NCBI GenBank assembly: GCA_964016885.1
Contig: OZ024741.1
Coordinates: forward strand, 125,116,001 to 125,180,000
DNA length: 64,000 bases
Direction: 5' to 3'
From: Eledone cirrhosa
Taxonomy: Eukaryota
Both the position numbers and the translations under genes were made by a program. This document shows, in pieces, positions 21,891 through 22,590 of the stretch (its first letter is position 1; every line of letters begins with the position of its first letter). The notes below the pieces were generated by a model. It was not told the DNA's origin and did no database searches. It saw nothing but the letters and a program-made list of their open reading frames with translations.

Positions 21891-22112
21891 TTCTACCTGG
21901 AGTTGCGACCGATAGATAGTATTAGCAATTGGAAAGACCAACGGAAAACATTGTTCCTTCGGTTCGATTTGACGAAAGTCGATCGTCTTCAGATATATAT
22001 ATGTATAAATATTTTGTATCTCCAAAGAAATACAGTTTTAGGAAGCCGTAGCTATGCAAACACCGGGGGGCTAACACCCTCTCGTGATGTCCAGCAGAAG
22101 CAAGGGGGACAA

Positions 22113-22154
22113 CCGTCTATGCATTTCAGGCTTAACTGGCCTTCGTCAGGACGG
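22113..22154 (-). ncRNA. Minimal type I hammerhead ribozyme
   Basis: Exact inverse of 22325-22366. Confidence 0.88.
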
Positions 22155-22324
22155 TCCCTCCCACCGCTTGCGACTGCTGGACTAGAAGACAGCTGAGAAT
22201 ATATACTTTTCTCGTCTGTGTAAATGAGGTGGTTAATCTCATTTGCATATGAACTGCATAAGTTGGCTCAACTTATAATAGAAAATAAATAGGATTTCGC
22301 TTCAAGCATAGCTTTATACAAGGA

Positions 22325-22366
22325 CCGTCCTGACGAAGGCCAGTTAAGCCTGAAATGCATAGACGG
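22325..22366 (+). ncRNA. Minimal type I hammerhead ribozyme
   Basis: CCGTC-CTGACGA-AGGC cagttaa GCCT-GAAA-TGCA-TA-GACGG; palindromic stem III ATGCAT; cleavage predicted after 22361. Confidence 0.9.
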
Positions 22367-22590
22367 ATGTCCCCCTTGCTTCTGCTGGACATCACCAGAG
22401 GGCACTAGCCCCCCCCCCCCCCCCGGTGTTTGCATAGCTACGGCTTCCTAAAACTGTATTTCTTTGGAGATACAAAATATTTATACACATTGTATAAAGC
22501 TATGTTTGAAGCGAAATCCTATTTCTATATATATATATATATATGCATATTATATATGTATATATGTATATATATATATATATATATATA

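Follow-up and report, generated by a model that had tools for sequence, protein, structure and literature searches.

A 322-nt hammerhead repeat in Eledone cirrhosa DNA, probably inserted head to head by a Penelope-like enzyme acting in trans

Introduction

How do two copies of one hammerhead motif come to lie on opposite strands of the same short piece of DNA, and what does such an arrangement say about the way hammerhead repeats move? Retrozymes are proposed to travel as circular RNAs with the help of Penelope-like enzymes, on the strength of co-occurrence and sequence kinship: mobilisation by Penelope-like elements (PLEs) was put forward in PMC7229834 and has phylogenetic support in bioRxiv 10.64898/2026.07.22.740005. 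The locus studied here, 21999-22524 of the window (the whole 64,000-nt stretch of Eledone cirrhosa DNA that was analysed), had been read in an earlier note as a circularly permuted fold-back unit that closes into a ~325-nt circle. We find that it is probably a single insertion of a non-coding 322-nt hammerhead repeat, a retrozyme-like passenger, placed in an AT microsatellite by the reverse transcriptase (RT) and endonuclease of a PLE working in trans.

Anatomy of the locus

The locus is made of two arms whose 5' ends face each other, set between AT microsatellite sequences:

21991-21998: remains of the (AT)n target on the left, at the end of a different high-copy repeat
21999-22321, minus strand: long arm in the order tail, middle, ribozyme, 3' part; its 3' end points outward and has no tail
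22287-22321, minus strand: tail copy, forming the 5' end of the long arm, 34/35 identical to 22490-22524
22158-22286, minus strand: middle part, 129 nt, present once at the locus, with no ORF and with family-level depth in public runs
22157-21999, minus strand: ribozyme and 3' part of the long arm
22321/22322: head-to-head inversion junction where the 5' ends meet, with no palindrome and an overlap of at most 1 nt
22322-22490, plus strand: short arm, 5'-truncated, starting 8 nt ahead of the ribozyme core
22491-22524, plus strand: tail of 34-35 nt at the right outer end only, with none at the left outer end
22525-22590: right (TA)n target microsatellite, following the tail

Of the 323 nt of the long arm, the last repeats the unit position of the first, which makes the repeat period 322 nt (GC 0.42); the AT target leaves an uncertainty of about 3 nt in the left end of the arm. 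A target-site duplication is not readable, both insertion ends lying within (AT)n. The short arm is 90.5% identical to 22157-21999 over 169 columns, and between the two arms there are 7 differences and a 10-nt poly-C expansion. Stops occur in all three sense frames of the unit, which has no ORF and in particular none with the RT and GIY-YIG endonuclease that mark an autonomous PLE. The minus-strand order given in the earlier note is borne out, with tail at 22321-22287, middle at 22286-22158 and ribozyme plus 3' part at 22157-21999. The boundary it had placed near 22279 is real and lies slightly elsewhere: tail and middle meet at 22286/22287 (22279 requires a 5-nt gap), and the unit closes through the junction 22320/21999.

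Two type I hammerhead motifs

Each arm carries one motif:

22325-22366, plus strand: type I hammerhead motif, core 22330-22355, predicted cut after 22361, helix I of 5 bp followed by a mismatch
22156-22111, minus strand: type I hammerhead motif, core 22149-22124, predicted cut after 22118, with helix I of 7 bp, helix II of 4 bp and helix III of 1 bp plus a UGCA loop

A descriptor scan found every conserved core letter (CUGANGA, GAAA, UH) in both. When made strict (exact core, helix I of at least 5, helix II of at least 4, short helix III), the descriptor matched twice in the window and in none of 100 block-wise dinucleotide shuffles, with thresholds set post hoc on a motif already known and with both matches being one duplicated sequence. 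The copies on the two strands had been called identical; both are indeed there, and the identity covers 45 nt (22322-22366) only, the 7 differences and the poly-C expansion lying outside it. No Rfam hammerhead model matched the motif: across the window Rfam gave no hit at gathering score, and in 21900-22700 the 18 weak matches at E<=10 included no ribozyme, the best being AT-repeat artefacts. Exact ribozyme patterns matched nothing in metagenome contigs and nothing in viral contigs.

Hammerhead positions are numbered after PMC4209133 and common usage. The usual pair at 10.1-11.1 is G-C (PMC4209133) and here it is A-U, which, together with a helix III whose predicted pair probability in the monomer is zero, speaks against the earlier description of all stems as perfect. 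Nor is the ribozyme 'minimal': by the definitions of PMC4209133 its layout is that of an ordinary metazoan type I hammerhead, not of the min-HHR. With the min-HHRs of metazoan PLEs it shares the conserved core, the palindromic helix III and the predicted action as a dimer; those ribozymes, however, have a helix II of 7-8 bp, a helix I of 4-5 bp and an unpaired letter 5' of helix II, whereas here helix II has 4 bp, helix I has 7 bp and is extended, no unpaired letter is present and 10.1-11.1 is A-U (PMC4209133). Helix III resembles that of the axolotl HHR_Amex1, in which one pair and a palindromic tetraloop make a dimer necessary. Dimer-dependent hammerheads of this form have been described for newt and axolotl (PMC7229834, PMC4209133), and the weak palindromic helix III (AUGCAU) fits them, as the earlier note had proposed.

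Predicted folds

When the long arm is folded alone, helices I and II are predicted to close around the core with the open end at helix I, the pair probabilities being 0.98-1.0 for helix II and the five core-proximal pairs of helix I. Helix III, a single A-U pair closing the palindromic UGCA tetraloop, has a monomer probability of 0.0. The AUGCAU segments of two copies are predicted to form a 6-bp palindromic duplex of -4.7 kcal/mol, and in a modelled tandem dimer imposing this 6-bp inter-ribozyme helix III costs 5.4 kcal/mol (nested model). A paper in RNA Biology reportedly deals with dimeric PLE hammerheads. In RNA read through the locus from either strand, the arms are predicted to pair as one long hairpin and the probability of helices I and II falls to 0.0. 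Three local folds are of interest:

22089-22182, minus strand: predicted long hairpin containing the ribozyme with extended helix I (z -4.5 for 22085-22190)
22455-22474, plus strand: 3' hairpin, with U-A as the outer pair in each arm, where most of the family has C-G
22480-22498, plus strand: 8-bp hairpin, from sequence and predicted fold, whose loop is the unit/tail boundary

The loop at 22480-22498 may be the site where reverse transcription first started, by analogy with the role described in PMC11167929. For the unit as a whole, the folding z was -5.5 (sense, linear), -4.7 (sense, circular) and -5.5 (antisense, circular), and 11/96 control pieces lay at z <= -5.5, the controls having 8 shuffles each and including inverted repeats and two pieces that overlap the locus. 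Since the antisense scores equally well and 11 of the 96 controls are equally low, folding energy was dropped as a sign of a circle.

The predicted folds bear on the suggestion that a ~325-nt circular RNA is made from this very locus, which would then be the best place to seek one. In its favour, the long arm holds one whole unit, its core is intact, and helices I and II are predicted when it is folded alone. Release of a monomer, however, takes two cuts on the same strand, and each strand has one motif, which leaves no dimer on one RNA; helix III is predicted not to form alone; read-through RNA is predicted to fold back and abolish helices I and II; and 7 differences have accumulated between the arms since insertion. 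We therefore regard an active source at this position as extremely improbable. The locus is predicted to be a dead end, probably inert and a poor source of circles, because its one ribozyme per strand would be hidden in a fold-back duplex on read-through.

A high-copy repeat family

Four of the nine listed DNA runs were compared with 21900-22325, a stretch without internal repeat. It is covered by 6,668 contigs in X1 and 7,861 reads in X7 (flank included), with the whole unit covered, and single variants are each carried by about 100 different X1 contigs (counted up to 128); the summed depth over the unit is not a copy number. The 322-nt unit is a high-copy family. Runs X5 and X6, of organisms B and C, gave 13 and 10 contigs. 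Their flanking repeat is likewise shallow, about thousandfold or more below X1, so the matches may represent trace DNA and we claim no second host. No description of the 322-nt family was found in the literature searched, which took in the main texts of PMC7229834 and bioRxiv 10.64898/2026.07.22.740005; the supplements of either may list it.

All three junctions of the unit occur in other copies. The closing joint from 22320 to 21999 is present in 11 X1 contigs, in 139 X7 reads from 8 starts and in 1 X5 contig, and was not found in X6. Among these X1 contigs the shorter side reaches up to 52 letters, passing through the tail into the middle part, and X5 record 13 holds 3' part, tail and middle in a single piece. 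The tail/middle boundary, with the family letter at 22286, is found in 109 X1 contigs and 425/437 X7 reads. Of the 24 listed pieces, 4 (records 5, 7, 8 and 18) bridge the middle/ribozyme boundary with at least 31 letters to either side. The unit is therefore closed at the DNA level, an ORF-less, retrozyme-like repeat. The earlier note had asked whether the tail-to-head junction is absent elsewhere; the junctions are present in other copies, and its ~325-nt unit is a real closed repeat of period 322 whose size, GC and ribozyme fit the range of metazoan retrozymes. The listings behind these comparisons hold 24 of the 6,779 pieces, 15 of the 22 joints, 40 of the 127 variant rows and 24 of the 416 loose ends. 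Among the 24 listed of 6,779 pieces, no record has two ribozymes in tandem or spans the whole stretch, and the locus's own inversion junction (22321/22322) is absent among the 15 of 22 joints listed.

The same junctions bear on whether the unit might instead be the pseudo-LTR of a long autonomous PLE, in which case the locus would be a doubly 5'-truncated PLE insertion and the closed unit a partial-tandem by-product. The pseudo-LTRs of PLEs do bear type I hammerheads and tails (PMC4209133, PMC3846280), and 24/57 Xenopus retrozyme families match annotated elements, nearly all of them PLEs, at their ends (bioRxiv 10.64898/2026.07.22.740005). In a coding PLE, though, the tail continues into an ORF, whereas here it continues into the middle part in the 109 X1 contigs and 425/437 X7 reads counted at 22286, and the unit has no ORF. 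The loose ends listed are only 24 of the 416 in all runs, 6 of them from X1, and long coding copies could hide as a minority among the others; the listed X1 loose ends that fall inside the unit (22253 and 22321) are variants of the unit itself. An origin as a pseudo-LTR is, in our judgement, unlikely.

Variation within the family also links the two arms. Both carry the minority letters at 22015 and 22034, which form one pair, A-U instead of the G-C of the majority (majority share 91% and 77% in X1; 339/348 and 389/455 in X7); this would be a single compensatory change, the two letters having been counted separately. The shared minority pair suggests that both arms came from one source and that the 3' end is structured. 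In the ribozyme core region three places vary (N7, loop 2 and stem II) and none is a catalytic letter, among the 40 of 127 variant rows listed; the stem II change, at 22140, breaks a pair in 279/470 X7 reads (9 starts). Over the ribozyme hairpin as a whole the same 40 rows give 4 variable places in 92 nt vs 24 in 231, a difference that is not significant (p 0.12).

Two rare X1 structures, an opposite-strand joint at 22058/22119 and a skip from 22061 to 22119, seen in one contig each, have a side at the predicted cut (22118/22117). They are possible traces of cleaved RNA used as template.

Mode of insertion

The fold-back layout, presented in the earlier note as a circular permutation, is a known pattern of PLE insertion that the note did not name: head-to-head arms, one of them 5'-truncated, a one-sided tail of 34-35 nt and a (TA)n target. 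Endonuclease-bearing (EN+) PLE insertions carry an inverted, 5'-truncated copy at the 5' end, head to head, and a tail of 30-40 bp that often stands at one end only, and (TA)n targets have been described for them (PMC8557442, PMC3846280). The present locus shares these traits, along with a hammerhead near the 3' end (PMC8557442, PMC3846280, PMC11167929), and differs in having no RT/GIY-YIG ORF, in a tail that returns into the 322-nt unit and in a long arm of exactly one period. In work with a purified PLE protein, both strands of the target were cut and extended, AT-rich DNA was preferred, reverse transcription began internally on the RNA at two neighbouring positions, one at either end of the tail, and the RNA used in vitro was mainly uncut (PMC11167929).

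Such an enzyme would have made a nick in each target strand and, with sense RNA as template, primed two cDNAs. The cDNA primed at the far end of the tail would give the short arm with its tail, the cDNA primed at the near end would give the long arm without an outer tail, and the two would then have been joined at their 3' ends. Because the element codes for nothing, the enzyme presumably acted in trans; and because both arms cross the scissile bond, the template was presumably longer than a cleaved monomer, exceeding the unit either as an uncut tandem transcript or as a religated circle. If the family behaves as known retrozymes do, tandem source copies elsewhere would be transcribed and their RNA would be cut by ribozymes paired as dimers at the AUGCAU palindrome, after which it may be circularised. 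Remnants of PLEs, with RT and GIY-YIG domains, are also found in the window; the unit has no sequence match to the six neighbouring PLE-like loci there.

Two other schemes were rejected. L1-type twin priming on one RNA is out, the inner ends not being adjacent in the unit, and a cleaved linear monomer is out as template, both arms crossing the cut site.

We infer that priming on two strands caused the head-to-head arms. PMC3846280 derives such arms from self-priming on antisense RNA, and the arms might also owe their inversion to a template switch onto antisense RNA or to a tandem dimer rearranged later at the DNA level. The position of the unit/tail boundary within an 8-bp hairpin would suit self-priming, as would an antisense strand that folds as well as the sense strand. 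The junction, however, has neither a palindrome nor microhomology (<=1 nt), fold-back copying of either arm cannot yield both a tail and a middle part, and both outer ends sit on the two tail boundaries, all of which makes these routes very unlikely.

Other elements in the window

The window is microsatellite-rich and full of retroelement debris. On the minus strand at 5847-8693 lies a broken PLE-like element between inverted arms (5847-6109 and 8429-8693, 94%), with RT pieces (Pfam RVT_1, E 1.3e-5) followed by a GIY-YIG-like frame (score 0.97, family on 26% of members) and a Cys-rich linker. A second PLE-like stump at 8725-9768 has 172-nt inverted arms, each with a hammerhead-like core (9624, plus strand; 8869, minus strand); its inner junction carries a 70-nt palindrome (9535-9604), and one of its frames is labelled GIY-YIG-like by eye. 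A different hammerhead repeat, of period about 317 nt, occurs at 60565-61081 and 61926-62133 as a partial tandem and an inverted copy; its motif (60889-60930) has a 3-bp helix III and a weak match to Rfam HH9 (E 0.018, below gathering score), and a 3' piece of it is found at 23307-23379.

The layout of 21999-22524 recurs at 44696-45703, where the inverted arms are near-identical and the inner end of one copies the outer extension of the other (45243-45298 / 45648-45703), which implies a closed unit of about 640 nt; CUGACGA is present there, GAAA is absent and no Rfam ribozyme model matches. Directly downstream of the locus, 22590-22830 holds a 150-nt palindrome with a one-sided extension and a relative at 19309-19462, and more palindromes or inverted pairs lie at 644-1622, 14425-14632, 19752-19883, 54778-54898, 55189-56284 and 57389-57615. 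The left target is the (AT)n end of a high-copy repeat at 21770-21986 that is SINE-like by eye and that we take to resemble octopus SINEs; in X1 the depth over 21900-21989 is roughly five- to tenfold that of the unit, with loose ends at 21985-21986. Broken frames of non-LTR retrotransposons (RVT_1, zf-RVT, endonuclease, zinc knuckle) occupy 2429-4042, 26466-35249 and 38367-40600.

Discussion

Judged by its sequence, the unit is a probable member of the metazoan non-LTR retrozymes. The sequence traits by which these are recognised (non-coding, about 150-450 nt, GC under 50%, a type I hammerhead and many copies) are all found in it, and it resembles the published examples in being non-coding, within 170-400 nt and of 42% GC, with a type I hammerhead, many copies and head-to-tail junctions (PMC7229834; bioRxiv 10.64898/2026.07.22.740005). 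It differs from them in that the copies at the locus are inverted rather than tandem. A term search found no mention of tails or head-to-head insertions in the main texts of PMC7229834 and bioRxiv 10.64898/2026.07.22.740005. Of the retrozyme dimers predicted in Xenopus, only 1/9 cleaved in vitro (bioRxiv 10.64898/2026.07.22.740005). The non-autonomous Chlamys PLEs, for example MRC1, offer a further parallel as short non-coding passengers with pseudo-LTR-type head-to-tail insertions, although those belong to green algae, are mostly without canonical hammerheads and insert at (CA)n or (C)n (PMC8557442).

Within the preferred account of a non-coding repeat inserted by a PLE enzyme in trans, the exact length of the long arm raises a more specific idea, which we offer tentatively and on balance doubt: that this arm records, as a fossil, the reverse transcription by a Penelope enzyme of an RNA circle made by the ribozyme. 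Synthesis would have started at the near tail boundary, crossed the religated cut site and stopped after exactly one turn, at the point where the enzyme meets its own primer. By chance, an arm would match one turn to within +-3 nt in about 2% of cases. Among the X1 opposite-strand joints listed, 2/7 have an arm that starts at the tail boundary (22187/22321 and 22205/22318; p 0.01-0.03 under a uniform model), a post hoc statistic on joints seen in one contig each and lying near the edge of the compared stretch 21900-22325. A fixed 5' end of the RNA, or a stall at the 8-bp boundary hairpin, explains a one-turn arm equally well.

The ribozyme, the class of repeat and the kind of insertion are each already well known. 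When a retrozyme-sized closed unit lands with head-to-head arms and the tail of a PLE, the structure itself points to the partnership between retrozymes and PLEs, and a family of such high copy number offers many junctions at which circular and linear outcomes can be counted against each other. If the circle reading is true, an excess of one-turn arms throughout the family would count as direct evidence, from genomes, for the proposed circular-RNA route of retrozyme mobility, and such arms would tie that route to the PLE machinery.
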